Shown one piece after another: positions 2,949-50,801 of a stretch of DNA of 64,000 bases (positions within the stretch are counted from its first letter, which is position 1; each line of letters opens with the position of its first letter). A program made the position numbers and the translations under genes. The notes under the pieces were generated by a model. That model was not told where the DNA came from and ran no database searches. It saw only the letters and a program-made list of their open reading frames with translations. The DNA is from a bacterium (GTDB lineage: Bacteria; Patescibacteriota; Minisyncoccia; Phycocordibacterales; DATDWN01), in assembly GCA_037134875.1 (NCBI GenBank), contig JBAXLH010000001.1:106646-170645 (forward strand), written 5' to 3'.

Positions 2949-2968
2949 AAGGAAACAAACTAAATTCT

Positions 2969-3149
2969 CCAAGACACGCATAAAGCCCTACTGGGGCTTT
3001 TGCTATGCTCGGAAATCAAGAAAACAATCGTCCTCACTCCAGAGCCTTCTCGCAAACTCGCTTTGCTCGCCCCTTCTTGCAGAGGGGTTGAGTGCTTCAG
3101 GCTTCTTTCCGTTCGTCGTTGTTTTCTAATTTCCTGCGCAATGTCTTGG
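2969..3149. repeat. ~180-nt structured intergenic element, copy 1 (candidate ncRNA or MITE-like element)
   Basis: Near-identical second copy at 50622-50801. 8-bp terminal inverted repeat ccaagaca/tgtcttgg. The internal hairpin aagccctactggggctt is replaced in copy 2 by attcgcttgctagcgaat, which is fully compensatory. Confidence 0.55.
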
Positions 3150-5998: not shown

Positions 5999-6054
5999 AA
6001 AATAAAAACAACCCAAAACTTTCACAATTTGGATGAGATTCGACGTTGAGAAAT

Positions 6055-6100
6055 AAAAAATACTCGGAGACGTACAAGAGTACGTTGACGAGTATTTTTT
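6055..6100. terminator. bidirectional rho-independent terminator between convergent thrS and gyrB (member of hairpin motif family)
   Basis: A-tract, then 12-bp outer stem aaaaaatactcg/cgagtatttttt enclosing inner hairpin acgtac-aaga-gtacgt, then T-tract. Confidence 0.55.
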
Positions 6101-6139
6101 ATTTCGAAACTAGAATATCGCCAAATTTGGAAGTTTTGG

Positions 6140-8272
6140 TTAGATGTCGAGAGTGGCAGTGTTGGCGTTTGACTGTATAAACGACTTTCTCGCCGGCACA
6201 TCCGTACCCATAAGCACATCAAAAACTTTGTCGGCAGCAACAGTATCCGCGATAGCGACTTGGAGCAAAATTCTGCGAGCCGGATCCATTGTTGTCTCCC
6301 AAAGTTCCTCGGCGTTCATTTCTCCGAGACCTTTGTATCGCTGAATAGAAATTTTGGATGTTTTTGGTTTGTCGTCTTTTTTGCCTTTTTTGTTTTCTGT
6401 TTCTTCCGATTCCTCGTCTTCGTCAGTAGCTTCTTCGCCACTTTCTACCTCGACAATCTCATCTTCTTTCACATCTTTTCCGACAATAGCAAACTTCTCT
6501 TCGTCTGAATATGCATAATGAACCTCCTTTCCTTTTTTGATTTTGAAAAGTGGTGGCTGTGCGATGTACACAAAACCTCCATCGATGAGCGGACGGAAAA
6601 ATCTATACAACAAAGTCAAAATGAGTGTGCGAATATGTGCGCCGTCCACGTCGGCATCTGTTGCAATAATTATTTTGTGATAGCGGAGTTTAGAAATATC
6701 AAACGTATCTCCGATCGCAGTGCCGAGAGCCACGACAAGATTTTTGATTTGCTCAGACTCGAGCATTCTATCGAGTCGCGCTCTCTCGATGTTGAGAATT
6801 TTTCCTCGCAAAGGAAGTATCGCCTGTGTACGTCGGTCACGACCGGTTTTTGCTGTACCTCCAGCAGAATCTCCCTCCACAATAAAGAGTTCTGACTCCT
6901 CTGCTGATTTGCTCTGACAGTCAGCAAGCTTGCCAGGAAGCGTCATTCCCTCGAGTGCACCTTTGCGGAGCACCGAATCCTTTGCGGCTTTTGCTGCCTT
7001 TCGAGCTTTGAGTGCGAGCACAACTTTGCCAATGATGGCCTTTGCGTCGTCAGGATTTTCTTCCAAAAAGTAATTGAACGCCTCTGAGAAAACAGAGTTT
7101 ACACTCGCCTGTGCCTCCACAGTTCCGAGTTTTGCTTTTGTTTGTCCTTCAAACTGAATTTCACGGAGCTTTACAGAGATAACGGCAGTAAGTCCTTCGA
7201 GCACATCCTCGCCAGTAAAATTGTCTTCACTTTCTTTTATCAGATTATTTTTTCGGCCATAGGCATTGAGTGTTCGTGTCAGAGCAGTTTTGAAACCAGT
7301 CACGTGTGTACCGCCTTCTGGGTTATAAATATTGTTTGCAAATGGCAAAATACGAGAAGAAATATCATCAACATATTGGAGCGAAACTTCGACTGACTCG
7401 TACTCGTTTGTCTTTTTTTCTATATAGAAAACATTTTTGTGAATTGGCTTGAGCGTACTGTTATAAAATTTGACGAGAGAGAGCAAGCCACCTTCGAAAT
7501 AAAATGACATTGATGGAATCTCCAAACCGAGCTCGGAAATTTTGAATACATCATCATCTTTTATTTTGCCAATATATTCACTCGCATCATTGACTGTAAT
7601 ATGCAAACCTTTGACGAGATATGCCTGCTGGCGAAGATGATCAACAACACGCTTGGCGTCAAATTTTATTTCTGGGAAAATCGCTGGGTCTGGCTCAAAT
7701 GTTACAATCGTGCCTGTGAGTTTTGTGCTACCGATTTTTTTGACCGCAGCTTTTTTCTTGCCTTGTGAATATTCCTGCATGTAAATACCACCCTCCTTGT
7801 GAACAACGACTTTACAATAAATAGAAAGTGCGTTGACCACAGATGCACCCACACCGTGGAGACCTCCGGAAACTTTGTATCCACCATCCTCACCACCAAA
7901 TTTTCCTCCAGCGTGGAGAGTAGTCATAATCGTTTCCAGAGCAGAAACTTTTGTTTGTTTGTGAATATCCACCGGAATACCTCGGCCGTTGTCTGTGACA
8001 CGAATGCGATTGTCTGGGAGCAGAGTCACTTCTATTTCGTCTGCAAAACCTCCCATCGCTTCATCGCGAGAGTTATCAAAAATTTCCCAAATGAGATGGT
8101 GGAGTCCGTCTGGACCAGTCGTACCAATGTACATTCCCGGTCGCTTTCGCACCGGTTCTAGTCCTTCCAAAATCTGGATTGCATCTGCACCATAACTGTC
8201 TTTCTTTGACTCGCCGTAGCCTTTGCCGGAGGCAGTTTTGGCCGTTTTTTCAGCCTTTTTTGATGTCGCCAT
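6140..8272 (-). CDS. gyrB: DNA gyrase subunit B
   Basis: GHKL ATPase motifs (HAGGKFGG...GLHGVGASVVNALS), Toprim region and QRYKGLGEM. Acidic insertion in the C-terminal part. Confidence 0.9.
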   Translation of the reverse strand: MATSKKAEKTAKTASGKGYGESKKDSYGADAIQILEGLEPVRKRPGMYIGTTGPDGLHHLIWEIFDNSRDEAMGGFADEIEVTLLPDNRIRVTDNGRGIPVDIHKQTKVSALETIMTTLHAGGKFGGEDGGYKVSGGLHGVGASVVNALSIYCKVVVHKEGGIYMQEYSQGKKKAAVKKIGSTKLTGTIVTFEPDPAIFPEIKFDAKRVVDHLRQQAYLVKGLHITVNDASEYIGKIKDDDVFKISELGLEIPSMSFYFEGGLLSLVKFYNSTLKPIHKNVFYIEKKTNEYESVEVSLQYVDDISSRILPFANNIYNPEGGTHVTGFKTALTRTLNAYGRKNNLIKESEDNFTGEDVLEGLTAVISVKLREIQFEGQTKAKLGTVEAQASVNSVFSEAFNYFLEENPDDAKAIIGKVVLALKARKAAKAAKDSVLRKGALEGMTLPGKLADCQSKSAEESELFIVEGDSAGGTAKTGRDRRTQAILPLRGKILNIERARLDRMLESEQIKNLVVALGTAIGDTFDISKLRYHKIIIATDADVDGAHIRTLILTLLYRFFRPLIDGGFVYIAQPPLFKIKKGKEVHYAYSDEEKFAIVGKDVKEDEIVEVESGEEATDEDEESEETENKKGKKDDKPKTSKISIQRYKGLGEMNAEELWETTMDPARRILLQVAIADTVAADKVFDVLMGTDVPARKSFIQSNANTATLDI

Positions 8273-8967: not shown

Positions 8968-9345
8968 CTACCGAGCTTCCATTCGTTCCTTGGTCAATTG
9001 TGCAATGAATGATCTCAGATCCGCCGGAACAATCGGATCTTCCATATTGAAACCAGATGTGCGATGCAAAATGATGCTAGCCAGAGCATCCTTTGCATTC
9101 TTGTCCGGGGTCTTAATATAGTCGAACCTCATGTTTTGAAGTTCCTGTACCATACCCGCGTTCCAAGAACGCGTTTGCTCGAAGACTTGCCGTTCGGCGG
9201 CAGCTTGCTTCGGCGCGAAATATTTGTACATAAAGAAATCATTGCCCTGGAAGACCCACGTCAGGGCCAAAACAACGATAACAAAAACGAGAAGATAAAA
9301 CACCATCTTCCCTATCGAAATATCATCGTAATCGGACATTTGCAA
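8968..9345 (-). CDS. hypothetical small membrane protein
   Basis: 125-aa ORF with one TM helix (FYLLVFVIVVLALTWVF). Co-oriented with the upstream lipoprotein gene. GC-rich. Confidence 0.45.
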   Translation of the reverse strand: MQMSDYDDISIGKMVFYLLVFVIVVLALTWVFQGNDFFMYKYFAPKQAAAERQVFEQTRSWNAGMVQELQNMRFDYIKTPDKNAKDALASIILHRTSGFNMEDPIVPADLRSFIAQLTKERMEAR

Positions 9346-9511
9346 CTTCCCTTTCAGAGAACAATTTCGTGATAGACATCACGAGTGAGCGGGTCACCAA
9401 GAATAGTTCCCGTACCGCGCGTATTTATAGCATACATAATTTTGCCTGTCAATAATAGTTTTTATTGACCTTTCGGGGTATTTAGAATAGTCTTTGTGGC
9501 GGAAGTGACAA

Positions 9512-10066
9512 ATGATATATCTCGCACGGCATGGCCGAAGTAAATATAATAATGAGGAATTGCTCAATGGGCAATTTGATGACCCACTCATTGAACAAGG
9601 AGAAAAAGAAGCCGAAATTTTGGCAAAAAAAGCTAGGATGTTGAGAATCGAGGAAATTTATTCTTCTCAACTCATCCGAGCATTTGTGACCGCAAGGATT
9701 GTTGCAACTACACTTGGAATAAGCAAAATAACTTCTCTCAAAGGTTTAAACGAAAGAGACTTTGGTAAGCTGACGCACCAGCCTGTCAGCAAAATCATTG
9801 AACTCTCCGATGTTGTTTTGAGAGCAAATGAAAATTCCATTTTTTGTTTGTCAGGACTTGGTGTGGAAACTTTTCCAAAACTCATTCAACGATTGAAACC
9901 AATATACCACGAACTTGTAAAGTGGAGATATTCAAAAGAGAGCATTCTTGTTGTGAGCCACGGCGATGTAATGAAAGCACTCGAAACAATTCATCGGGAT
10001 GTTGACTACCAACAAGTCCTGATGGAAGGACATTATCCGAACTGTCACATTGTACATTTGAAATAG
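9512..10066 (+). CDS. histidine phosphatase family protein (phosphoglycerate mutase-like)
   Basis: RHG motif (LARHGRS) and second catalytic His (SHGDVMKAL). Confidence 0.75.
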   Translation: MIYLARHGRSKYNNEELLNGQFDDPLIEQGEKEAEILAKKARMLRIEEIYSSQLIRAFVTARIVATTLGISKITSLKGLNERDFGKLTHQPVSKIIELSDVVLRANENSIFCLSGLGVETFPKLIQRLKPIYHELVKWRYSKESILVVSHGDVMKALETIHRDVDYQQVLMEGHYPNCHIVHLK

Positions 10067-25395: not shown

Positions 25396-25560
25396 AAAAT
25401 CTAGCGGGATTTTAGATGGTGGGAACCCTCAGGTAATCAAAAGGCTCCTCGCCATTGCGATGAGAACCTTTCGGCCCCCACCCATACCGGTTTCCCGATA
25501 TGACCCGCTAGAGTGACTCTGACGAGGAGTCCTTTGATCTCTAGCGGGATTTGCAACCAT
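25396..25560 (-). promoter_or_regulatory. candidate structured 5' leader with triplicated 9-nt motif (mutually exclusive helices)
   Basis: tctagcggg at 25400-25408 and 25540-25548; its complement cccgctaga at 25505-25513. GC-rich nested helices between (ggtggg/cccacc, gggaacc/ggtttccc). The proximal motif abuts the start codon at 25395. Confidence 0.3.
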
Positions 25561-25698
25561 ATCCTAAGAATTTGACTTCCTAGGGGTTAGGTCGGCTTAT
25601 ATTCAATTGTGCAAGTACATGATAGCAGAAATTGCTATCGTTTGACCACCTTAGCTTAGCTTTGAGAGCTTGCAAAGTAGGTTATCTACTCCTCAATT

Positions 25699-31233: not shown

Positions 31234-32979
31234 TTAATACTTCAATTCCTTTAGATACCCTTCGACCTTTGTATCAATTGCCGTACGCTCCTTTTCGAGA
31301 GTAGCTAACTCCTTGCGTACAGCAGACACATCAATAATTTCCTCTTTATCACCGTTCTCAATGTAGCGGCGAACGTTGAGGTTGTACTCATTCGTTTCTA
31401 TCTCCTTCAGGTCAACGACGCGGGCATAACCATCAATATCCTTAAAACCATCGTAAGTTTTAACAATTTTCTGAATGTCCTGATAACGGAGCGAATTCTG
31501 ATTCTTACCCTCAGAGAAGTCCTTCTCGGCATCTACGATCAACACTTTACCTTTGTGACCTCCCGCCTTGTTCTTGTTGAAAATGATAATGGCCGCTGGA
31601 ATGCCCGTGCCGTAGAAGAGCTTTGACGGAAGTGCAATCACAGCTTCGATGAGGTCATTCTTAAGTATTTGTTCCCGAATACGGCCTTCGGAACCACCTC
31701 GGAAGAGGACACCGTGCGGGAGCACAATACCGGCACGGCCATTAGAGTTCATCGACTTGATGATGTGGAGCACAAAGGCGTAGTCAGCGTTTTTGTTTGG
31801 TGGCAGTTCGTACCCGTCGATGCGACCGTATTTATCGGACTTGAACATCTCGTACTCCCAGTCGTTGATTGAGTAGGGTGGGTTTGCAACGCAAATATCA
31901 AATGTCTTGAGACTACCGTTTGGGTTCAAAAACTGCGGGTTCGCGAGTGTGTCGCCCCGCTGAATGTCGGCGCTATCAAGTCCGTGGAGAAACATGTTGA
32001 TCTTGGCGATCGCATAAGTGCCAATATTAATCTCCTGGCCATAAAGATAGAGCGTGCGCGCAATCTGCTCGCCCTCTTTCTCTTTCAGATGATGAAAAGC
32101 CTCCAAAAGGAATCCGCCTGAGCCGACCGTGGGGTCGTAAATATGATCTTTCTTGTGTGGCTTAAGTATCTGTATGATGACGCGTTCAACTTCACGCGGT
32201 GTATAAAACTCACCGCCTTTCTTTCCGGCGTCAGCCGCAAACTGTTTGATGAGGTATTCGTACGCATCGCCAAGGACATCGGAGTTGATGTATGTGTCGC
32301 CAAAGTTGTATTGAGAGAAGTGGTTGATGAGGCGCTGAGTCGTTTCGTTCGGGAAGCGGTCCTTGTTGGCAAAGTCGAGGTCATCAAAAATCCTGTCGAG
32401 CTTCGGACTATTGGCGTTGGCAAGCTTTTCAAAAATCTCATTGAGTTTCTTGCCGATGTTTTCTGCTTTTTCCTCAACAACCGACCAACGACACTCCTTC
32501 GGCACCTGAAAGCGATGGTTGTAGTCGGCGCGAGCGATCGTTTCGTCTTTGAACTCTTCCATTACCTTCGCGTACTCTTCATCCCAGACGTCGCTGATGC
32601 GTTTGAAAAAGAGAAGGCCAAAGATGTACTTCTTGTAGTCAGAACTGTCGATTTTGCCGCGGAGAATATCCGCACTCTTCCAGAGGAACTGCTCGAGCTG
32701 TGGAAGAGTGAGCTTGCTACCCATCTTGTCGACTATTGCTCGTATATCTTCAGGGCGATATTTACGATCCCCGCGTTTACCGGCACGCATGGGTACTAAA
32801 ATGCCCTCCTTTTCCCAGTTACGGAGGGTGTCTGGATGGATATTAAAGATTTCAGCGACCTGTCCTATTGAAAGGAGGTCGGGCATTTCTTTGAGTTTTG
32901 CTTGTATATCTTTGCGCATATTGTTAAGTACTATCCTATCGCGGGCTAAATATAATGTCAAGCGTTCATAGGTTATCAT
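31234..32979 (-). CDS. hsdM: Type I R-M methyltransferase subunit with N-terminal MerR/excisionase-type HTH extension
   Basis: N6-adenine methyltransferase motifs (NPPY: VANPPYS) and HsdM N-domain. The first ~75 aa (LLSIGQVAEIFNIHPDTLRNWEKEGILVP...KYRPEDI) match a MerR/HTH_17-like domain. Confidence 0.85.
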   Translation of the reverse strand: MITYERLTLYLARDRIVLNNMRKDIQAKLKEMPDLLSIGQVAEIFNIHPDTLRNWEKEGILVPMRAGKRGDRKYRPEDIRAIVDKMGSKLTLPQLEQFLWKSADILRGKIDSSDYKKYIFGLLFFKRISDVWDEEYAKVMEEFKDETIARADYNHRFQVPKECRWSVVEEKAENIGKKLNEIFEKLANANSPKLDRIFDDLDFANKDRFPNETTQRLINHFSQYNFGDTYINSDVLGDAYEYLIKQFAADAGKKGGEFYTPREVERVIIQILKPHKKDHIYDPTVGSGGFLLEAFHHLKEKEGEQIARTLYLYGQEINIGTYAIAKINMFLHGLDSADIQRGDTLANPQFLNPNGSLKTFDICVANPPYSINDWEYEMFKSDKYGRIDGYELPPNKNADYAFVLHIIKSMNSNGRAGIVLPHGVLFRGGSEGRIREQILKNDLIEAVIALPSKLFYGTGIPAAIIIFNKNKAGGHKGKVLIVDAEKDFSEGKNQNSLRYQDIQKIVKTYDGFKDIDGYARVVDLKEIETNEYNLNVRRYIENGDKEEIIDVSAVRKELATLEKERTAIDTKVEGYLKELKY

Positions 32980-33067
32980 AGGTCTAAACCTTAGCTTGCT
33001 ATGTAAAATAAGGGTAATTTGGCTATCAACAGGTGTCCTGGACTCCCTAGAGCCTTTACGTCATTGA

Positions 33068-34360
33068 TTGATGTATATGGAAACAAAGCAATTGGAGGCC
33101 CTCCGGTACTGCCTCTACGCACGCAAAAGTACCGAAGCAGAGGATAAACAGGCCCTTTCAATAGAGTCGCAGGTAAAGGAGATGCAAGTGCTCGCCGAGC
33201 GGGACGGGCTCCATATCGTAGAGATAAAGCGAGAGTCACACTCCTCCAAGGAGGTAGGCCAGCGGCCGGTATATAACCAGATGCTCGAGGACCTACGCTC
33301 ACAGAAGTTCAATGCAATACTCACATGGGCTCCGGATCGGTTGAGCCGCAATGCCGGAGACTTGGGGTCGGTCGTAGACCTCATGGACCAGAAGCTGCTG
33401 CATGAGATACGCACCTACGGGCAGAAGTTTACCAACAACCCGAATGAGAAGTTTTTGCTGATGATACTCGGGAGCCAAGCGAAACTTGAGAACGATAACA
33501 AGGCGGTGAATGTTAAGCGTGGATTGCGCACACGATGCGAGATGGGGTGGAGGCCCGGCGTTGCACCAACCGGATACTTAAACGAAAAGCACGTTGATAA
33601 AAAGTGCCAATGTAGGGTTGATCCAAAGCGCGGACCGGTCATCAAACAGATGTTTGAAAAAGTAGCCAATGAACAGTGGAGTGGGCGCAAGCTATATCGC
33701 TGGTTGAGAGAAATCGACTTCAAGACGCATCGCGGCAAGCCGTTGGTGCTGGCGAATGTGTACATAATTTTGCGAAACCCTTTTTATTACGGCGACTTTG
33801 AATACCCGGTCGGTGGAGGCAAGTGGTACACAGGCAAGCACACGCCAATCATTGATAAGGAGTTGTATACAAAAGTGCAAATGACACTGAACGCGAACTT
33901 TATACCCAAAACTGAGAGTAAAGAGTTTGCCTTTACCAAGCTCATACGATGCGGACACTGCGGCTCGGGCATATCCGCAGATGAGAAGTTCAAGAAGTTA
34001 AAAGACGGCGGTGTAAACAGGCACGTGTACTACTTCTGCACCAAGGCTCGGAATATAGACTGCAAGAATCCGGCCATAAATGAGCCGGGTCTGATCGAGG
34101 AGCTTATAGGTCTCATGGATAAGGTCAACATGGACGAACTAGGCATACGAACCCGGATAGAGGATGAAATAAAACGGTTTAACAAATTTAGGTCAGGCGT
34201 ACTTGGACACAAGCAAGACAAAATAGAGATCGACGTAGATGTAAGAAATTACACCAAGTACCTATTGAGAGAAGGGACGCTTATAGAGAAGCGCGAACTG
34301 CTCGGATGCCTTCAAAGCAAACTATTTCTGAATGACAAAAAAATCAGAATGGATAATTAA
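33068..34360 (+). CDS. large serine recombinase (integrase) 1
   Basis: Resolvase catalytic domain (YCLYARKSTEAED...SIESQ), recombinase domain and zinc ribbon (CGHCGS...YYFC). Confidence 0.85.
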   Translation: MMYMETKQLEALRYCLYARKSTEAEDKQALSIESQVKEMQVLAERDGLHIVEIKRESHSSKEVGQRPVYNQMLEDLRSQKFNAILTWAPDRLSRNAGDLGSVVDLMDQKLLHEIRTYGQKFTNNPNEKFLLMILGSQAKLENDNKAVNVKRGLRTRCEMGWRPGVAPTGYLNEKHVDKKCQCRVDPKRGPVIKQMFEKVANEQWSGRKLYRWLREIDFKTHRGKPLVLANVYIILRNPFYYGDFEYPVGGGKWYTGKHTPIIDKELYTKVQMTLNANFIPKTESKEFAFTKLIRCGHCGSGISADEKFKKLKDGGVNRHVYYFCTKARNIDCKNPAINEPGLIEELIGLMDKVNMDELGIRTRIEDEIKRFNKFRSGVLGHKQDKIEIDVDVRNYTKYLLREGTLIEKRELLGCLQSKLFLNDKKIRMDN

Positions 34361-35309
34361 TTGCAGTCCAATCGAGCACCAGAGGGTTGGGTTTTCCTGA
34401 ATTAGAATCTAACTCAAACTTAGGAATATAAAATTCCTTTTCATACTTCTCAAAACCAGTCGTAACAATCTTGAATATATTCCTAATGAGGGGGCTCTTC
34501 TGGTCAAAAAATCCAGTGCCAAAGTTAAGTCCGAATTGCGCATGGAACATTACTACCGCAGCGCCAACTGCGTAGACTGCATTTTCCAAAGTCGCGAACT
34601 TTAGATTTTCCTCTCGGTCGTGTTTAGTCTTGTTATAGGAGTCATACCAATTCAATGATGTCGTTGGATTACTAACATCCCACCCCTTAAAAGGTGCAAA
34701 AGCTGGGAAGTTCGGATATGACTGCAAAGATAGTTCGTATCCGTCTAAAAGCATCGGGTGATGCAGTTTTACATAGTCATTGGTAGTTAACCTCGGTGAG
34801 GAATACGTATTCTCTTTTAAGACCGCCGTCCACGATGACTCAACTTCCATAGATGCCAGTAGAATGATCTCCCTGATTTTGTGACCATAGACTGATAAAT
34901 TATCCTTGTTTGGTTCAATGGTTTCAAAGAGATATTCCAATTTGCCGAGCAATATACGCAGTGAGACAAAAGACTCATTTAATTTTTCTTGATAGGCAAT
35001 ATTAAATGGACGCCCTCCACATGCAAGAGGCCTCCACATTCTTTTGTAATAAGTGCCAAGGACGTAACTTGATTCAACCGGTTCGCTGTCACCAAAACTC
35101 TTTGTAACCCAATCTTTAATGTCGGTGAAGGTTGTATTTGGAACTTTAACGAAATGTACCTCACCTCCATGATTAACTCCCGAGGCAAAGAGGACACCCT
35201 GACCCTCGAAAGCAACTCCGCTCTCGTGGTGAAAAAAGAAGTCTTGATCAAAATTTGGTCCTTGTTTCCCATTAGGGAAAAATTTGTTTTGAAAAAATAA
35301 TATCTTCAT
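34344..35309 (-). CDS. hypothetical protein (unknown function) abutting repeat A
   Basis: ORF from MKILFFQNKFF. No motif. The upstream region is the 202-bp repeat A. Confidence 0.4.
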   Translation of the reverse strand: MKILFFQNKFFPNGKQGPNFDQDFFFHHESGVAFEGQGVLFASGVNHGGEVHFVKVPNTTFTDIKDWVTKSFGDSEPVESSYVLGTYYKRMWRPLACGGRPFNIAYQEKLNESFVSLRILLGKLEYLFETIEPNKDNLSVYGHKIREIILLASMEVESSWTAVLKENTYSSPRLTTNDYVKLHHPMLLDGYELSLQSYPNFPAFAPFKGWDVSNPTTSLNWYDSYNKTKHDREENLKFATLENAVYAVGAAVVMFHAQFGLNFGTGFFDQKSPLIRNIFKIVTTGFEKYEKEFYIPKFELDSNSGKPNPLVLDWTAINYPF

Positions 35310-35351
35310 AATCTGCGACCGACGTGTCTCAGTCACCTGACTTAGTATATG

Positions 35352-35553
35352 TTGGCTGTGTCTCCTGAACAAAATCCGAACTTTTTTCCAAACTAATCCG
35401 ACTGAGGATTAATCTGCGCGCCTCGCCCGCTCCCTTCGGTCGCGGGAGCAAAAACCAAAAATTTTCCTTACCTTTCTTATTTTCTTCGGCGGGGGGTGTG
35501 GGGGGAGCCGACAAAAAATGGAAAGGAAATTTTTGGTTTTGCTTCGCCGCTAC
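35352..35553. repeat. inverted repeat A (202 bp), left copy
   Basis: Near-identical inverted copy at 38588-38789. Outer end is ttggctg. Confidence 0.85.
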
Positions 35554-35819
35554 AGACTACGAAATGAACATTTACATTATATCATTTGTGGTTCTTTGGA
35601 GTTGTTCATTTCTCCGTCCTTGCGGCGATACGAGGCGCTTCCTCTCCGCGTTTGGTGATAGCTTGAAACTTTGTGCCTCCGACCGAGTTTAGTGGTACCT
35701 CACAAAGCGGATTGTGCTTGGCACAAACAAATCTTATTGTGCTTGCCCCGCCCGCCCTGTGCGCGCACAAATCCCCGCCGTTTTTAGGAAATATTATAAA
35801 ACGGCGGGGATTGCCTCCC

Positions 35820-36686
35820 TTATGCCGACTCAAATGCTTTTTTGAAAGCTGGTTCTTGCATAGCGGCATGGCTCGCGCCATACACGACAAAAACTCGCTT
35901 GTGAGTTTTGAATGCTTCAAGAATATCTCCAACAATTTTTTTATCTCTAAAAAGCGACGAGGCTTCGCCAATTCGATTCAAAATTGTTTGTTTTTCTTTT
36001 TTCTCGTCCCACGGTATCGGGTCAATCCGATCAAGTGCATTTGGGTCATTTTCAACATCTACAGCTTCGCCGAAAATCTGCTCGCCAAGTTTTATAGCGC
36101 GTTCGTATGAGTAATCGAAACCTTCCCAATTAGTTGTTCGTTTGAATCGGTCAATAAATCCAGAAACATATTTTTCAAATCCCTCTCGTTTCATTTGTCG
36201 ATTATATTGCGGAAGAATGTGGAAAACATCCCATGCAAATATTTGGTCTTTTGAAAATCCTTTGGCGAGCAAGTCGTTATACAAATCCTCGTCGGTTGGT
36301 TCGGGAGATTCCCAGTCAATTCCTTTTTCAACTCCTAATTTCAATGTAAGACCTGACTCGCCCATACGGTCAATTGCTTCCTCGCGTGTGGCAGATTTTA
36401 CTCTCTCATTAAATTTTGTTTTATCTCCGCGAACATTCATACCCTCGACAAAAACAATATCAGGATTCGCTTTATTGAAAGCGGCCTCAATTTCTGCGAA
36501 TAGAGGATTACTTGGGTCGCTTGTGTGAGGCGAGCCGAAGTAATAAAGTTCTTTATCTCCCGCTTTCAATTCAAAAACATATGGTGTTGCGTGTTCAATT
36601 TTGCTGTATTCCTCGGCAGTCATTATGCTACTCAAAACTGATTCTGTCGTTTCGGATTTATTTTTTGGTTGTTCAAATGTTTCCAT
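35820..36686 (-). CDS. TraB/GumN-family protein
   Basis: YYFGSPHTSDP and VYGASHAAM resemble TraB/GumN signatures. Inside the inverted-repeat-flanked cassette. Confidence 0.5.
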   Translation of the reverse strand: METFEQPKNKSETTESVLSSIMTAEEYSKIEHATPYVFELKAGDKELYYFGSPHTSDPSNPLFAEIEAAFNKANPDIVFVEGMNVRGDKTKFNERVKSATREEAIDRMGESGLTLKLGVEKGIDWESPEPTDEDLYNDLLAKGFSKDQIFAWDVFHILPQYNRQMKREGFEKYVSGFIDRFKRTTNWEGFDYSYERAIKLGEQIFGEAVDVENDPNALDRIDPIPWDEKKEKQTILNRIGEASSLFRDKKIVGDILEAFKTHKRVFVVYGASHAAMQEPAFKKAFESA

Positions 36687-36688
36687 AA

Positions 36689-37447
36689 TTATTTTTTGGA
36701 AACATAATCAATTATCTTGTCCCAATCGAGGTTATCTTTTGTATAAAAAAGGTCAATGACATCTTTTGTCATTTCGTTGATTTTCTTTACATAAAGTTGT
36801 TTAAAACTATCGTCTCGTTTCTTAGCTTCCTTATCCAGTGGTTGAATGATTTTTTTATACAATTCGTTATCGCCAGAGATAAGTTCCCAAAAAGCTTGTC
36901 CGCAAATTTTGTAATAACTAAGGTCGGGGTCTTTATTCACCTTATGTGGAACATTGTCTCGTCCATAAATACAGCCGTTTACAGAAACAATACTATTTTT
37001 ATTGAGTTCGGCACGAAGTAACTTTTTAGCAATTTTCAAGTTTCTTTTCAATGTATTTACTTGGTCAGAATTTCCCCAGTTTGGTCCGGATTTAATACCA
37101 ACGATATAGGTTTTTTCATCTCGATCAAAAATTAAATCAACGCTACGATATTTCCCTTCCTCCGCTTTTTTGCCCTTAAATACTTCGTGGCAAACATGGA
37201 TAGCCAGATTTTCCATCAAATCGCCGAAAATTGTTTCCTCTTGTGATGACAAAAAAGCGTCAAGAATACTTTTTGCCAAATCTCCTGCGGTCTCGATGTT
37301 CTTGGCCTTAAATAAGTAAGGATTTTTTCGTTTTGAAATATAAGAAAGTTTTGCCGATTCAAGTCGAGCAAGCCGTATTTCATAAAATGGTTTTATAACA
37401 TCAGAAGCGATAAAGGTATTTAGTTTTTCGTAGTTTAGTTTTTTCAT
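36689..37447 (-). CDS. putative Type II restriction endonuclease (PD-(D/E)xK)
   Basis: Position immediately downstream of C-protein and methyltransferase. Candidate D...D/ExK (SVDLIFDRDEKTYIVGIK). Confidence 0.5.
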   Translation of the reverse strand: MKKLNYEKLNTFIASDVIKPFYEIRLARLESAKLSYISKRKNPYLFKAKNIETAGDLAKSILDAFLSSQEETIFGDLMENLAIHVCHEVFKGKKAEEGKYRSVDLIFDRDEKTYIVGIKSGPNWGNSDQVNTLKRNLKIAKKLLRAELNKNSIVSVNGCIYGRDNVPHKVNKDPDLSYYKICGQAFWELISGDNELYKKIIQPLDKEAKKRDDSFKQLYVKKINEMTKDVIDLFYTKDNLDWDKIIDYVSKK

Positions 37448-37448
37448 A

Positions 37449-38315
37449 TTATTTCGTTTGCTCGTTAATATTTTCGACAGCCAGTTTGTGATATTCCTCC
37501 TGTATTTCAATACCTATTGAATTACGGTCAAGCTGAAAAGCGGCAATAGAAGTCGTGCCGGAACCCAAAAATGGGTCTAGAACGACGTCTCCGGGTTTTG
37601 TAAAAAGTTTAATAAACCAACTCGGTAGTTCTTTGGGAAAGACTGCACTATGTTTTTTGTTGGAACTTTCGGTCGCCATTGAAAGTACATTTGTAGGATA
37701 AGCTAAATCGCGACCTACCCAATTTGATACATTTTTTCCAAAACCGCTACCAACTTTTGAGTTATCTCGTTGCTTATCAGTTTCGCTAAGATTTTTCAAA
37801 CGAGTTTTTGCCCAATCTCCCATGGGGACTCTTACCTCATCTTGATACATATTAAAATCTTTTGATTTATTGAATTGCAAAAGTCGTTCCCAAGAATCAC
37901 GAAAACGGTTAGGCCACTTGCCCGGAAAGCAATTTTTTTTGTGCCAAATAAATTCTTCTGTCCAAAGCCAGCCCTGTTTTCGCATTGCGATAATTAGCTC
38001 CATGACATAGGTATGACGCTCACCATTTGCAACTTTTTCTTTAATATTCAAAACGAACGTTCCTTTTGGATGTAAAACTCGTAATAATTCTGCCGTCATA
38101 GGCAAAAACCATTCAACATATTTATCAGGACTAATTCCGCCGTAAGTGCTTTTCCTTTGGTCTGCGTAAGGTGGTGATGTGACGATAAGATCGACGGAAT
38201 TTTCTGGCAAACTTTTTAAAACATCAAGACAGTCGCCAAGAATAACATCCGCTTTTACTTTGGCTTTTGTCTTTGCATTAAACAAGTCAATTTTTTCTAT
38301 AGTGTTAATTGTCAT
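37449..38315 (-). CDS. Type II DNA methyltransferase (N4-C/N6-A, beta class)
   Basis: SPPY motif (LIVTSPPYAD) and motif I FLGSGTT. Confidence 0.85.
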   Translation of the reverse strand: MTINTIEKIDLFNAKTKAKVKADVILGDCLDVLKSLPENSVDLIVTSPPYADQRKSTYGGISPDKYVEWFLPMTAELLRVLHPKGTFVLNIKEKVANGERHTYVMELIIAMRKQGWLWTEEFIWHKKNCFPGKWPNRFRDSWERLLQFNKSKDFNMYQDEVRVPMGDWAKTRLKNLSETDKQRDNSKVGSGFGKNVSNWVGRDLAYPTNVLSMATESSNKKHSAVFPKELPSWFIKLFTKPGDVVLDPFLGSGTTSIAAFQLDRNSIGIEIQEEYHKLAVENINEQTK

Positions 38316-38320
38316 AAAAT

Positions 38321-38527
38321 TTATTTCAGCAATTCATCTGTTGAAACGCTAAGTGCTTTTGCAATATTGGAAATGGTAGAAAGAGTTGGATTTGTTTTGC
38401 CATTTTCGATATTGCTCACAAAACTTCGGCTAACGCCGAGTGTTCGCACAATATCGCCTTGTGTAATGCCTTTTTCTGTTCTGATTCGCTTTAGGTTTTT
38501 ACCCAACTTTGCAGACTCGCTTTTCAT
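38321..38527 (-). CDS. controller (C) protein, XRE-family HTH
   Basis: LGKNLKRIRTEKGITQGDIVRTLGVSRSFVSNIENGK. First gene of the C-M-R operon. Confidence 0.75.
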   Translation of the reverse strand: MKSESAKLGKNLKRIRTEKGITQGDIVRTLGVSRSFVSNIENGKTNPTLSTISNIAKALSVSTDELLK

Positions 38528-38587
38528 ATCCACAAGTATACCACTTCCAATTACATTATACACCAATATTATAGTATAATGTAATAG

Positions 38588-38789
38588 GTAGCGGCGAAGC
38601 AAAACCAAAAATTTCCTTTCCATTTTTTGTCGGCTCCCCCCACACCCCCCGCCGAAGAAAATAAGAAAGGTAAGGAAAATTTTTGGTTTTTGCTCCCGCG
38701 ACCGAAGGGAGCGGGCGAGGCGCGCAGATTAATCCTCAGTCGGATTAGTTTGGAAAAAAGTTCGGATTTTGTTCAGGAGACACAGCCAA
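38588..38789. repeat. inverted repeat A' (right copy)
   Basis: Reverse complement of 35352-35553. Confidence 0.85.
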
Positions 38790-38914
38790 GTTTCGGAATT
38801 CGTTTTTTCGCCAAAATTCGGAGCGTCGCAAAGCGACGCGACTGGGGTTTCCGCCAGAATTCGCCAAGGGTTTTTGAAATCCAAAAGAAGCGAGCGGGAC
38901 GCGAGGCGGGGGTT
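38783..38914. repeat. inverted repeat B (left copy), abuts A' sharing cagccaa
   Basis: Reverse complement matches 40349-40480. Confidence 0.8.
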
Positions 38915-38998
38915 TATGATGAGTACATCATTCAAAACAAAGTTTTGCGAGCCAATCTTGAAGCGATAATTATCAATATTTAACATAAACCTTTTTCT

Positions 38999-40537
38999 AT
39001 GAACAAATTCTTTCTGTATGCGAGAAAATCTACCGACGAGCCAGATCGTCAGATTTTGAGTATTGAATCGCAGATTGACGAGTTGAAAGAATTTGCAAAG
39101 CGAGAGCAGTTGGAAATTGTTGAAACTTTTATTGAATCACAAACCGCCAAAGAGCCGGGGCGACCTATTTTCAACAATATGCTCTCGCTTATAGAAAAAG
39201 GTAAAGCGTCAGGAATTTTAGCTTGGCACCCCGATAGATTGGCGAGAAATAGTATTGATGGTGGAAAGATAATCTATCTGTGCGACCTTGGTAAAATTAA
39301 AGAGCTAAAATTCCCGACGTTTTGGTTCGACGCTACGCCACAAGGTAAGTTTATGTTAAATATTGCTTTTGGGCAGAGCAAATACTATGTAGATAATCTT
39401 TCAGAGAATGTGAAGCGCGGACTTCGACAAAAAGTAAGACGAGGCGAACAGAGCGGTCAAGCTCCGACGGGATATGTGAATGATAAGTTGAACAAGAAAA
39501 TTATTCCCGATGTGGAAAGATTTCGCCTCGTCAGGAAAATGTTCGAAGTCTACGCCACGGGAAATTATTCTCTGAAAGATACAAGGAATTTGCTCGCCCA
39601 AAAGGGCTTGGTGTCTAAAAATGGTAAAGTTCTCACTGTTTCAAACACGCAAATGATATTGAAAAATCCGTTCTACTATGGAATGTTTTTCTTTAACAAA
39701 GAACTTTACCAAGGAAAGCACGAGCCAGCGATTTCAAAGAAACTTTTTGATAAATGCGCTGAAGTATCGGCGAGGAATGCTCACCCGATGAAGCGAGGAA
39801 TTAACAAACATATCTTTCGCGGAATACTTTCGTGTGCAGAATGCGGATGTGGTATCACTAGCGAAGTGCAAAAGGGTCATACCTACTATCGTTGCACCAA
39901 AAAGAAAGGTGTCTGCACACAAAAATATATCCGCGAAGAATTCCTCGCCGAACAAGCTAATGATATTATCAAAAAAGTTTCTTTGCCGTCCGAGTGGAAA
40001 GAATTCATGCTCGCTGAACTCGAAAAGGAACAAGCGAGCAGTTTCCACTCTGACGCCCTTTTCGTTCAAAATCTGAAAAATCAAATCAAAAGTGTTGAGG
40101 AGACGCTAGACAAGCTCCTTGACGCTCATTTGGATAGCACAATTACGAGCGAGGAGTATATCGGCAAGAAGCAAAAGCTCCTCAACCAAAAAATTGATTT
40201 TTCAGAGAAATTGAAAGATTTTGAACGAAAAGGCAATCGCTGGCTCGAACTTTCTCGTCAATTCATTTTAGACAGTAACCAAGCCATAATTATCGCTTCC
40301 GAAGAAAATCTCGAAGCCAAAAGAGATTTTCTTAAAAAGATTGGCTCGAACCCCCGCCTCGCGTCCCGCTCGCTTCTTTTGGATTTCAAAAACCCTTGGC
40401 GAATTCTGGCGGAAACCCCAGTCGCGTCGCTTTGCGACGCTCCGAATTTTGGCGAAAAAACGAATTCCGAAACTTGGCTGCGGGACTTGGATTCGAACCA
40501 AGATGACACGATTCAGAGTCGCGTATCCTACCATTAG
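38999..40537 (+). CDS. large serine recombinase (integrase) 2; last ~60 codons read through repeat B' and antisense tRNA-Gln
   Basis: Resolvase domain (FLYARKSTDEPDRQILSIESQ), recombinase domain and zinc ribbon (CAECGCG...YYRC). Confidence 0.8.
   Translation: MNKFFLYARKSTDEPDRQILSIESQIDELKEFAKREQLEIVETFIESQTAKEPGRPIFNNMLSLIEKGKASGILAWHPDRLARNSIDGGKIIYLCDLGKIKELKFPTFWFDATPQGKFMLNIAFGQSKYYVDNLSENVKRGLRQKVRRGEQSGQAPTGYVNDKLNKKIIPDVERFRLVRKMFEVYATGNYSLKDTRNLLAQKGLVSKNGKVLTVSNTQMILKNPFYYGMFFFNKELYQGKHEPAISKKLFDKCAEVSARNAHPMKRGINKHIFRGILSCAECGCGITSEVQKGHTYYRCTKKKGVCTQKYIREEFLAEQANDIIKKVSLPSEWKEFMLAELEKEQASSFHSDALFVQNLKNQIKSVEETLDKLLDAHLDSTITSEEYIGKKQKLLNQKIDFSEKLKDFERKGNRWLELSRQFILDSNQAIIIASEENLEAKRDFLKKIGSNPRLASRSLLLDFKNPWRILAETPVASLCDAPNFGEKTNSETWLRDLDSNQDDTIQSRVSYH
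40349..40480. repeat. inverted repeat B' (right copy), ends at tRNA-Gln CCA terminus
   Basis: Reverse complement of 38783-38914. Confidence 0.8.
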
Positions 40538-40548
40538 ATGATCCCGCA
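40475..40548 (-). tRNA. tRNA-Gln (anticodon CUG)
   Basis: Cloverleaf read by hand. Acceptor UGCGGGA/UCCCGCA, D-arm with GG, anticodon stem CGCGA/UCGUG, loop CUCUGAA, T-arm CUUGG-UUCGAAU-CCAAG. CCA encoded. Confidence 0.8.
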
Positions 40549-50572: not shown

Positions 50573-50621
50573 ATGACCCCTATACTACCACAAAAAACTA
50601 GTCAAAGTCGAGTAAACTTTT

Positions 50622-50801
50622 CCAAGACACGCATATTCGCTTGCTAGCGAATTGCTATGCTCGGAAATCAAGAAAACAATCGTCCTCACTCCAGAGCCTT
50701 CTCGCAAACTCGCTTTGCTCGCCCCTTCTTGCAGAGGGGTTGAGTGCTTCAGGCTTCTTTCCGTTCGTCGTTGTTTTCTAATTTCCTGTGCAATGTCTTG
50801 G
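50622..50801. repeat. ~180-nt structured intergenic element, copy 2
   Basis: See copy 1. Lies between ctpA stop and rplI start. Confidence 0.55.

Follow-up and report, generated by a model that had tools for sequence, protein, structure and literature searches.

A putative serine-integrase element with twin inverted attachment repeats at a tRNA-Gln gene in Patescibacteria

We analysed a 64,000-nucleotide stretch of a Patescibacteria genome (assembly GCA_037134875.1, contig JBAXLH010000001.1, positions 106,646 to 170,645), called the window below. Between positions 35352 and 40480 the window contains two adjoining pairs of inverted repeats, A/A' and B/B', which enclose a restriction-modification (R-M) cassette and the gene of a large serine recombinase, rec2, and which we interpret as parts of one putative integrative element at a tRNA-Gln gene (Table 1). 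All coordinates are positions within the window, and repeat copies were counted within the window only. A repeat search and a self-blastn of the window define pair A as 209 nt with 99% identity. Its perfect part (35352-35553 and 38588-38789) covers 202 nt at 100% (self-blastn, E 4e-101). Pair B, found by the same two methods, comprises 132 nt at 100% identity (E 4e-63). The two pairs are the strongest matches of the 64-kb self-comparison, and each has two copies and no more. The heptamer CAGCCAA (38783-38789) is the overlap of A' with B, and its complement TTGGCTG opens A (35352-35358) and closes B' (40474-40480). The tRNA-Gln(CTG) gene on the minus strand was identified by ARAGORN and by Rfam (56.8 bits); B' reaches 6 nt (CAGCCA) into its 3' end. 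An earlier inspection of the letters, the sequence-only reading, had described two nested or adjoining repeat pairs that share a heptamer, with B' ending at tRNA-Gln, and this layout is confirmed. Spread of A or B in the manner of miniature inverted-repeat transposable elements (MITEs) is not seen in the 64-kb window, which has two arms of each.

Table 1 Features of the putative element and its boundaries (positions in the window)
Feature	Position	Strand	Remarks
Putative attR (S1)	35340..35385	-	A' end, core CAGCCAA 35352-35358, host-side flank
Repeat arm A	35352..35560		Outer ~50 nt, putative integrase half-site; inner ~150 nt with long hairpin
Segment U, non-coding, putative backbone	35561..35819		Ends in strong hairpin CCCCGCCGTTTT...AAAACGGCGGGG
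TraB/PrgY/GumN-like cargo protein, 288 aa	35820..36686	-	Weak match
Type II restriction endonuclease, EcoO109I family	36689..37447	-	PF14511, 239 bits
N4/N6 DNA methyltransferase	37449..38315	-	PF01555, 161 bits
Xre-type helix-turn-helix (HTH) protein, 80 aa	38321..38563	-	HTH_3
Repeat arm A'	38581..38789		HTH start codon 17 nt from inner end
Putative internal attP (S2)	38755..38815	+	A' end, CAGCCAA 38783-38789, B start; inverted relative to attL/attR
Repeat arm B	38783..38914		Upstream of integrase gene
Large serine recombinase rec2, 512 aa	38999..40537	+	
Repeat arm B'	40349..40480		Encodes rec2 residues 451-494
Putative attL (S3)	40474..40548	-	Core 40474-40480 plus tRNA-Gln(CTG) 40475-40548

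The region between the A arms encodes, all on the minus strand, an HTH protein, a methyltransferase, an endonuclease and a weak TraB/GumN-like protein. With 37-38% GC, against about 40-45% in the flanks, its earlier description as an AT-rich cassette is true in a weak sense. The same genes had been taken for an operon of C-protein, methyltransferase and endonuclease. The two enzymes are borne out by their Pfam matches, and the HTH gene appears to belong primarily to the backbone of an element family (see below). The endonuclease has 252 aa as called in other assemblies. Its open reading frame (ORF) in the window extends to 37510, and an exact-protein look-up of this 273-aa ORF returned no record. 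The same type of look-up placed the HTH protein on one known contig. The TraB/GumN-like match reaches 25.4 bits, under the Pfam cut-off of 26.8, and a protein identical to that of the window is present on 6 contigs. An Rfam scan of the window at the gathering threshold and of 35-41 kb at E<=1 matched only the tRNA in 35-41 kb. Folding signals of repeats A and B were weak or absent (z -2.2 and -0.1), and promoter and terminator scans of 35.2-40.8 kb did not rise above shuffled sequence.

The rec2 protein is the likely agent of recombination. Its N-terminal catalytic domain carries the nucleophilic serine (PF00239 Resolvase, 80 bits, residues 5-150), with the motif LYARKSTDE at residues 6-14. 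Recombinase (PF07508, 52.8 bits) and Zn_ribbon_recom (PF13408, 34.8 bits) domains are also present. Against phrog_95, annotated as 'integrase', rec2 scores 255 bits; phrog_125 'DNA invertase' matches the catalytic domain only, and CcrB is the top NCBIfam match (107 bits, far under its cut-off). A conserved C-terminal motif, FLKKIGSN..L..R.L...FK.PW, is encoded within B'. The last 62 codons run through B' and then along the antisense strand of the tRNA, and the ORF thereby crosses the core of the attachment (att) site. Read from the sequence, the ORF would end in ...TWLCLLNKIRTFFQTNPTED if joined to A instead of the tRNA, giving 511 aa compared with 512 aa in the integrated state. An exact-protein look-up of rec2 returned no record. 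Among 72,556 annotated plasmids and 50,697 phage records identity to rec2 was at most 31%, and no free form was found. Viral contigs yielded one distant match (49% identity), and its 11.4-kb locus showed no tRNA gene.

Relatives of rec2 are numerous. A scan of one genome per species gave at least 559 stretches that encode them, and the best 80 were analysed. All family counts given here cover these best 80 loci, which are almost all metagenome-assembled genomes (MAGs) of Patescibacteria, also known as the candidate phyla radiation (CPR); single loci are cited by L numbers. Integrases 90-97% identical to rec2 occur in MAGs labelled Nomura-, Lloyd-, Taylor-, Doudna- and Paceibacteria, and a clade at 53-57% identity is found mostly at tRNA-Ser, with a few tRNA-Gln loci. 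A convergent tRNA gene touches or overlaps the 3' end of the integrase gene in 64 of the 80 loci (43 Gln, 20 Ser, 1 Asn). An inverted repeat of 85-134 nt flanks the integrase gene in 51 of 54 evaluable loci (median length 125 nt, median identity 99.3%, 29 perfect). In 14 loci, cargo of 1.2-7.4 kb is bounded by a second inverted-repeat pair (106-409 nt) that abuts the first, as a rule with an overlap of 4-5 nt. The integrase ORF is open across the att junction in 55 of 56 loci and truncated only in L035; with this sole truncated ORF, arm divergence and integrase decay gave no usable correlation. Arms are identical within genomes and differ between genomes, which indicates concerted evolution; gene conversion between the arms would be one way to keep them alike. 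The element is a member of a conserved, widespread family of serine-integrase cassettes that carries defence genes among the ultra-small Patescibacteria, and we found no published description of this family. Literature searches on serine recombinases, serine integrases or mobile elements in Patescibacteria, Saccharibacteria and CPR returned mostly nothing relevant and no account of the family.

Alignment of the junctions distinguishes three site types in each resolved element, and the hybrid S1 and S3 junctions are present in the window and in 14 fully resolved loci. S3 joins tRNA, core and B; S2 joins A', core and B; and S1 joins A', core and flank. Across dozens of genomes all three junctions have a core in common, CAGC(CA) for the Gln clade and CCGC(CA) for the Ser clade, made up of the final acceptor-stem bases, the discriminator and the beginning of CCA. 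This core lies within the heptamer that the sequence-only reading had proposed as the recombination core, and that proposal gains weight. The flank past S1 varies by genome and often resembles a tRNA terminator hairpin. At its outer end A' is similar to the T-arm of the tRNA, with GTTCGGAT-N15-CAGC in the arm and GTTCGAAT-N10-CAGC in the tRNA. In the Ser clade the corresponding pair is GTTCGAAC-N15-CCGC and GTTCGAAT-N10-CCGC. In the window, GTTCGGAT is present at S1 (35374-35381, minus strand, 15 nt from the core) and at S2 (38760-38767), and the T-loop motif GTTCGAAT of tRNA-Gln occupies 40491-40498, 10 nt from the core. In all 36 evaluable loci, about 10 nt separate GTTCGRAT from the core in the tRNA and about 15 nt in A'; 33 of them have spacings of exactly 10 and 15, and in the remaining 3 the two spacings differ by 4-5 nt.

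In serine integrases the motif for the zinc-ribbon domain lies at positions 16-24 of the attP half-site and 11-19 of attB, a 5-bp inward shift, and canonical large serine integrases pair only attP with attB (PMC3783163). The 10-versus-15 geometry of the family leads us to assign A'/core/B as attP, tRNA/core/trailer as attB, S3 as attL and S1 as attR. On this half-site geometry S2 would be an intact internal attP, inverted relative to both attL and attR. Since both arm pairs are 100% identical, reconstruction of attP from attL and attR would give the sequence of S2 over 334 bp. The sites of L058 have only CAG in common, and half-site geometry fits a CA crossover slightly better. A palindromic GC crossover, which would abolish polarity, was not confirmed by the junctions or the geometry.

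On balance we favour the reading that 35352-40480 is one integrative element of ~5.13 kb, probably inserted by rec2 at tRNA-Gln from a circle with two inverted attP-bearing repeats, one copy of which was used. The two repeat pairs are halves of one repeat, A'-core-B; the sequence-only reading missed these halves, the tRNA mimicry of A' and the conservation across the family, and its notion of a separately acquired mobile unit is supported. In the favoured reading, rec2 would have recombined attP (A' end, core, B start) with attB (tRNA-Gln 3' end, core, tRNA trailer). The crossover would fall within CAGC, which comprises the two final bases of the acceptor stem, the discriminator base and the C that opens CCA. 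The products would be attL at 40.48 kb (tRNA/core/B), with the tRNA end rebuilt, and attR at 35.35 kb (A'/core/flank). The empty attB is predicted to read tRNA-Gln...CAGCCAA joined straight to CATATACTAAGTC. In the circular form, two inverted ~335-bp repeats would separate a 1.4-kb integrase arc from a 3.0-kb cargo arc. Integration via one repeat copy would split that copy into A' at the far end and B at the tRNA end, and this splitting would account for two adjoining inverted-repeat pairs that share a heptamer. The second ~335-bp repeat (A'-core-B) would stay intact, in inverted orientation, between the divergent integrase and HTH/cargo genes. Either repeat copy could serve for integration.

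The orientation of the two arcs is nearly constant across the family. In the usual state the integrase gene is convergent with the tRNA (64 of ~69 loci) and the HTH gene adjoins S2 (18 of 20). The tRNA lies upstream of and co-directional with the integrase gene in L026, L035, L060 and the metagenome contig L096. In L035 the tRNA is followed by the integrase gene in sense orientation and then by the middle site, towards which the cargo is transcribed, and the HTH gene sits at the far arm. The orientation of its integrase module is unambiguous because its B arms are only 91% identical. This order is a circular permutation of the usual layout, as expected from integration via the other repeat copy. 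In L016 the cargo arc alone is flipped, unambiguously so because the A arms are 86.5% identical, and L073 possibly has the same cargo-only flip. Flipping over evolutionary time may proceed via integration through the other copy, arm-to-arm recombination, or both. It is possible that selection against read-through from the tRNA promoter into a co-directional integrase gene biases the isomers. A metagenome scan for the integrase module beside this tRNA in either orientation gave 3 contigs, none tied to the population of the window. The sole flipped contig among them, L096, belongs to a different strain (95% identity) and is not evidence of inversion within the population. No alternative orientation was found within the window population, a weak negative given the 3 matching contigs and 202-nt arms that short reads cannot resolve.

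Two further loci depart from the common layout. In L093, a locus of the tRNA-Ser clade, the integrase gene lies between two inverted, identical copies of a whole tRNA-Ser(GGA) gene (7640-7858 and 9344-9562). The repeat spans the core and the entire tRNA-Ser, and the arms differ only in ~30 nt just past the core. Such a layout could result if the internal attP had recombined with a second tRNA gene, or if gene conversion had extended the repeat. At 2821-3038, L020 contains a full tRNA-Gln with a terminator-like trailer and, ~100 nt on, a second tRNA 3' fragment joined to core, B and integrase. No S2 site was found upstream, and L020 is probably a degenerate or rearranged element.

The HTH gene appears to be primarily a backbone gene of the element and not a component of R-M units only, because its homologues keep the same position in elements without R-M cargo. 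Homologues with 35-78% identity were found by tblastn in 19 other loci of both clades. In 17 of these the gene sits immediately upstream of S2 and is transcribed away from the integrase gene, on the other strand; in two it is displaced. In L035 it heads a non-R-M cargo (P-type ATPase). In the window element the HTH protein may double as the R-M controller. The outer 48-63 nt of arm A are conserved in many family loci. Segment U (~260 nt) is common to L061 (90% identity), L016 (82%, inverted there) and L018 (~75%), with differing cargo. The segment may be a terminator, or a small RNA transcribed from a promoter copy in arm A.

The cargo is variable and consists mostly of defence genes. It comprises type I R-M in L018, type I R-M with a reverse transcriptase in L024, OLD/AAA ATPase with HsdS and HsdM in L049, GmrSD/Mrr/Schlafen in L074, AbiEii in L016, a reverse transcriptase in L047, a D12 methyltransferase in L057 and a multicopper oxidase in L081. 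The R-M cassette of the window, including the inner ~150 nt of the A arms, is 99.8% identical in L002 and L003, which come from metagenomes of the same lakes. There, the outer ~50 nt and the adjoining B-like sequence are of the tRNA-Ser type, ...GTCCAGTAGATA/CCGCCAA (L002 1-196; L003 3177-3225). The occurrence of one R-M cassette in Gln-type and Ser-type elements implies that cargo moves between elements of different tRNA specificity, and at this level of identity the comparison indicates a recent exchange between the two types. On each arm the swap boundary is set back ~50 nt inwards from the core, a position that favours homologous exchange within the shared inner-arm sequence over a crossover at the core. 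Recombination between arms could thus be the route by which cargo is replaced.

Several points weigh against the favoured reading. Searches with exact proteins and one DNA pattern revealed no excised circle or empty attB among contigs of the same population, and every contig that reaches tRNA-Gln continues into B'. No recombination directionality factor was identified, and excision is a step that we infer; apart from the integrase gene, the only backbone gene is that of the 80-aa Xre-type HTH protein, and directionality factors share no common sequence signature. Equal use of both repeat copies predicts about half of the insertions to be of the L035 type, and the observed ratio is about 64 to 4-5. 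Because the A arms of L035 are 100% identical over 140 nt and the contig stops within one of them, the assembler may have chosen the cargo orientation of this locus. The cargo-only flip of L016 shows arm-to-arm inversion, and L035 could be explained by two such inversions. The crossover is placed to CAGC only and not to a dinucleotide. Finally, short-read assemblers can collapse near-identical arms, which may inflate the values of 100%, and short reads cannot orient a segment between perfect repeats that exceed the read length, which applies to the cargo arc of the window.

The inverted repeats, being perfect, would also suit a phase-variable switch and would then exist for that purpose: expression would be turned on and off by inversion of the R-M/HTH cassette, of the integrase gene or of both, driven by the integrase or by RecA at the perfect repeats. 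The flipped integrase modules with the tRNA reading into the integrase gene (L026, L035, L060, L096), the cargo-only flips (L016, L073) and the ongoing recombination suggested by arms that are identical within and different between genomes all agree with such a switch. However, 18 of 20 loci agree in the polarity of the HTH and U markers, and 64 of ~69 have the integrase gene convergent with the tRNA. Inversion would leave all three junctions as before, and any promoter within an arm would be present on both sides anyway. Pairing of attP with attL or attR, as opposed to attB, is not expected of a canonical large serine integrase (PMC3783163). In contigs from several samples the tRNA, B' and the 3' end of the integrase gene form one unbroken stretch, and the flipped form in the metagenome scan came only from the different strain at 95% identity. 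Modules have inverted between genomes, but we found no evidence of phase switching and consider a switch rather unlikely. The recombinase-driven invertible segment of the sequence-only reading survives in the sense that flips are found in the family (L016, L035, L026, L060, L096); the polarity constant in 18 of 20 loci and the lack of a flipped form in this population, a weak negative, speak against it. A system of the Hin/Gin invertase type was ruled out by the architecture of rec2 (512 aa, Recombinase and Zn-ribbon domains).

Two adjacent, independent terminal-inverted-repeat transposons, a non-autonomous R-M unit (A...A') and an insertion-sequence-like integrase unit (B...B'), would explain why each module has long terminal inverted repeats of its own and why the same R-M cassette occurs in a second element type. 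Yet neither module has a target-site duplication (flanks of A...A', ...AGTATATG and GTTTCGGA...; flanks of B...B', ...GGAGACA and CGGGACT...), and each repeat has only two copies in the window. In 14 of 14 resolved loci the modules adjoin each other in one order and have the core in common. The spacing at the A' end and at the tRNA is that of attP and attB, and the boundary of the R-M swap lies ~50 nt inside the arm ends and not at them. We regard this pair of transposons as very unlikely. An autonomous R-M 'transposon', as suggested earlier, is unlikely in view of the missing target-site duplication and further copies, the match of the A ends to attP half-sites and the apparent backbone role of the HTH gene. 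A terminal-inverted-repeat transposon or MITE was rejected since neither a target duplication nor dispersed copies are seen in the 64-kb window. The earlier suggestion of serial (tandem) integration, with two elements inserted at one att core, fits the threefold presence of the core heptamer and the unrelated serine recombinase, rec1, that lies with a type I R-M system just beyond attR. It would leave direct repeats and predicts a direct middle site, but S2 is inverted in every locus examined, which contradicts it; moreover, the rec1 region is without such a site and rec1 is only 37% identical to rec2. Its chances are slimmer still. Least probable of all is an assembly artefact, a chimeric inverted duplication or collapsed repeats. 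Short-read contigs of the same population do break at or inside the repeats, and short reads cannot fix the orientation between perfect 202-nt repeats. The same architecture, however, recurs in more than 50 independent assemblies from varied samples, assemblers and phylum-level lineages, and the loci with diverged arms (L016, L035, L049, L057) are unambiguous.

The contig breaks concern ENA k141 contigs, JGI Ga0194053 and Ga0194054, Logan unitigs and the MAG GCA_964547445.1, and are what inverted repeats would be expected to cause. The lake samples of origin are covered by JGI 3300021605 and 3300021520, the ERZ273000xx assemblies, and SRR7053533 and SRR7053536. Together with the 202-nt perfect arms they imply that the cargo orientation in the window is not verifiable from short reads. 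The public ENA contig k141_340446 (L003 1-16) opens with an untrimmed Nextera transposase adapter, TGTGTATAAGAGACAG.

The enzyme and site logic of the putative integrative element appears to be that of a phage-type serine integrase, and we file it there. Like the large serine integrases of Listeria A118/LI, Bxb1 and phiC31, rec2 has Resolvase, Recombinase and Zn-ribbon domains. Short att sites, a small core, hybrid attL and attR and a motif 5 bp nearer the centre in attB are also held in common (PMC3783163). In contrast to those systems, the target is a tRNA 3' end, and the attP arm mimics the tRNA T-arm and acceptor. The attP lies inside the 3' end of the integrase ORF, which is open across the core in 55 of 56 loci, and a second, inverted attP is kept within the ~335-bp repeats. 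The element is also tiny, consisting of integrase, HTH and cargo genes, and lacks phage genes as well as a recognised directionality factor. No precedent for a tRNA-mimicking attP, an ORF-spanned core and a retained inverted second attP was found in the literature searched, the 72,556 plasmids or the 50,697 phage records, and we know of no other serine-integrase element that combines all three.

Other systems share single aspects of this layout. The yeast 2-micron plasmid carries a tyrosine-type recombinase, FLP, whose FRT sites lie inside 599-bp inverted repeats. The proposed circle resembles this plasmid and inverted-repeat genomes of the chloroplast type in its two inverted repeats, two unique arcs, flipped isomers and concerted arms, and the 2-micron plasmid in having a recombinase site inside each long inverted repeat. 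Unlike the plasmid, the element has a serine recombinase and no replication genes, is integrated in a tRNA gene, and its integrase, if canonical, should not recombine two attP sites. The serine invertases Hin, Gin and Cin are proteins of ~190 aa with a C-terminal HTH that act on identical 26-bp sites; the C segment of Cin/P1 has 0.6-kb repeats, and the Salmonella hin gene lies within its own invertible segment. The tie between a serine recombinase and segments bounded by inverted repeats is common to both, whereas the element has a 512-aa integrase-type protein, attL, attP and attR sites and a near-fixed orientation across genomes. In SCCmec/Ccr elements, too, large serine recombinases insert varying cargo cassettes into a single conserved host gene, at its 3' end; these elements differ in their rlmH target, which is not a tRNA, their direct-repeat boundaries and the lack of an internal inverted att, and the present element has a single recombinase.

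Furuta, Abe and Kobayashi (2010) described R-M units between long inverted repeats as well as units of R-M and integrase genes at tRNA genes (PMC2853133). The former have 8-bp target duplications and no integrase, and the latter have tyrosine-type integrases and direct repeats (PMC2853133). The element differs from both in joining the two features, and its repeat ends appear to be serine-integrase half-sites. A preprint on Prochlorococcus tycheposons (bioRxiv 10.1101/2020.12.28.424599) describes compact, cargo-swapping integrative elements at tRNA genes in streamlined genomes without classical conjugative machinery. Compactness, cargo swapping and the tRNA-gene location are shared with our element. 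Tycheposons reportedly use tyrosine recombinases, and we know of no twin inverted att repeats reported for them.

It is conceivable, if doubtful at present, that the twin inverted attP is functional and not a by-product, such that a one-way integrase stays reactive with any further attB. If so, retention of attP would amount to a natural counterpart of recombinase-mediated cassette exchange, by which defence cassettes would pass between elements with different tRNA targets, such as the Gln-type and Ser-type elements of one lake that carry the same R-M cassette; a live attP could drive chromosome inversions between tRNA genes, as L093 suggests, and the element family may be a main route of defence-gene exchange in Patescibacteria. 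More generally, the genomes of Patescibacteria are tiny, and at least 559 matches together with integrase identities of 90-97% across the named lineages point to the family as a major overlooked vehicle for the horizontal transfer of defence systems there. The family also represents a large natural collection of compact integrases whose attP/attB pairs can be predicted (Gln, Ser and Asn specificities) and which may be useful for genome engineering. In addition, the elements explain recurrent contig breaks beside tRNA-Gln and tRNA-Ser genes in CPR MAGs.

The region beyond attR (31234-35372) looks like a separate, older island that abuts it. It contains rec1, a second large serine recombinase (33068-34360, 430 aa, 37% identical to rec2) without the C-terminal extension. 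rec1 has no flanking inverted repeats, and no att-like site was found around it even with 8 mismatches allowed. It adjoins a type I R-M system, with hsdM at 31234-32979 and hsdS and hsdR further left. The only match of a 342-aa protein by rec1, within 31234-35372, is phrog_19461, a family of unknown function. In or near this type I R-M and rec1 island, a LOOT RNA (RF03000) was detected at 25462-25593 on the minus strand (70.5 bits, gathering threshold 46.4).

Two further repeats lie elsewhere in the window. A 188-nt direct repeat (2962-3149 and 50615-50801; 92.5% identical) is intergenic, its copies being 47.6 kb apart, and its ends form short inverted repeats, CCAAGACA...TGTCTTGG. Folding gave a very stable structure for either strand (z -5.6 and -5.2), and Rfam matched nothing in it; the repeat may represent a MITE-like element or else a structured RNA not yet described. 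The self-comparison also revealed an imperfect 127-nt palindrome at 6013-6139, which is 78% self-complementary.

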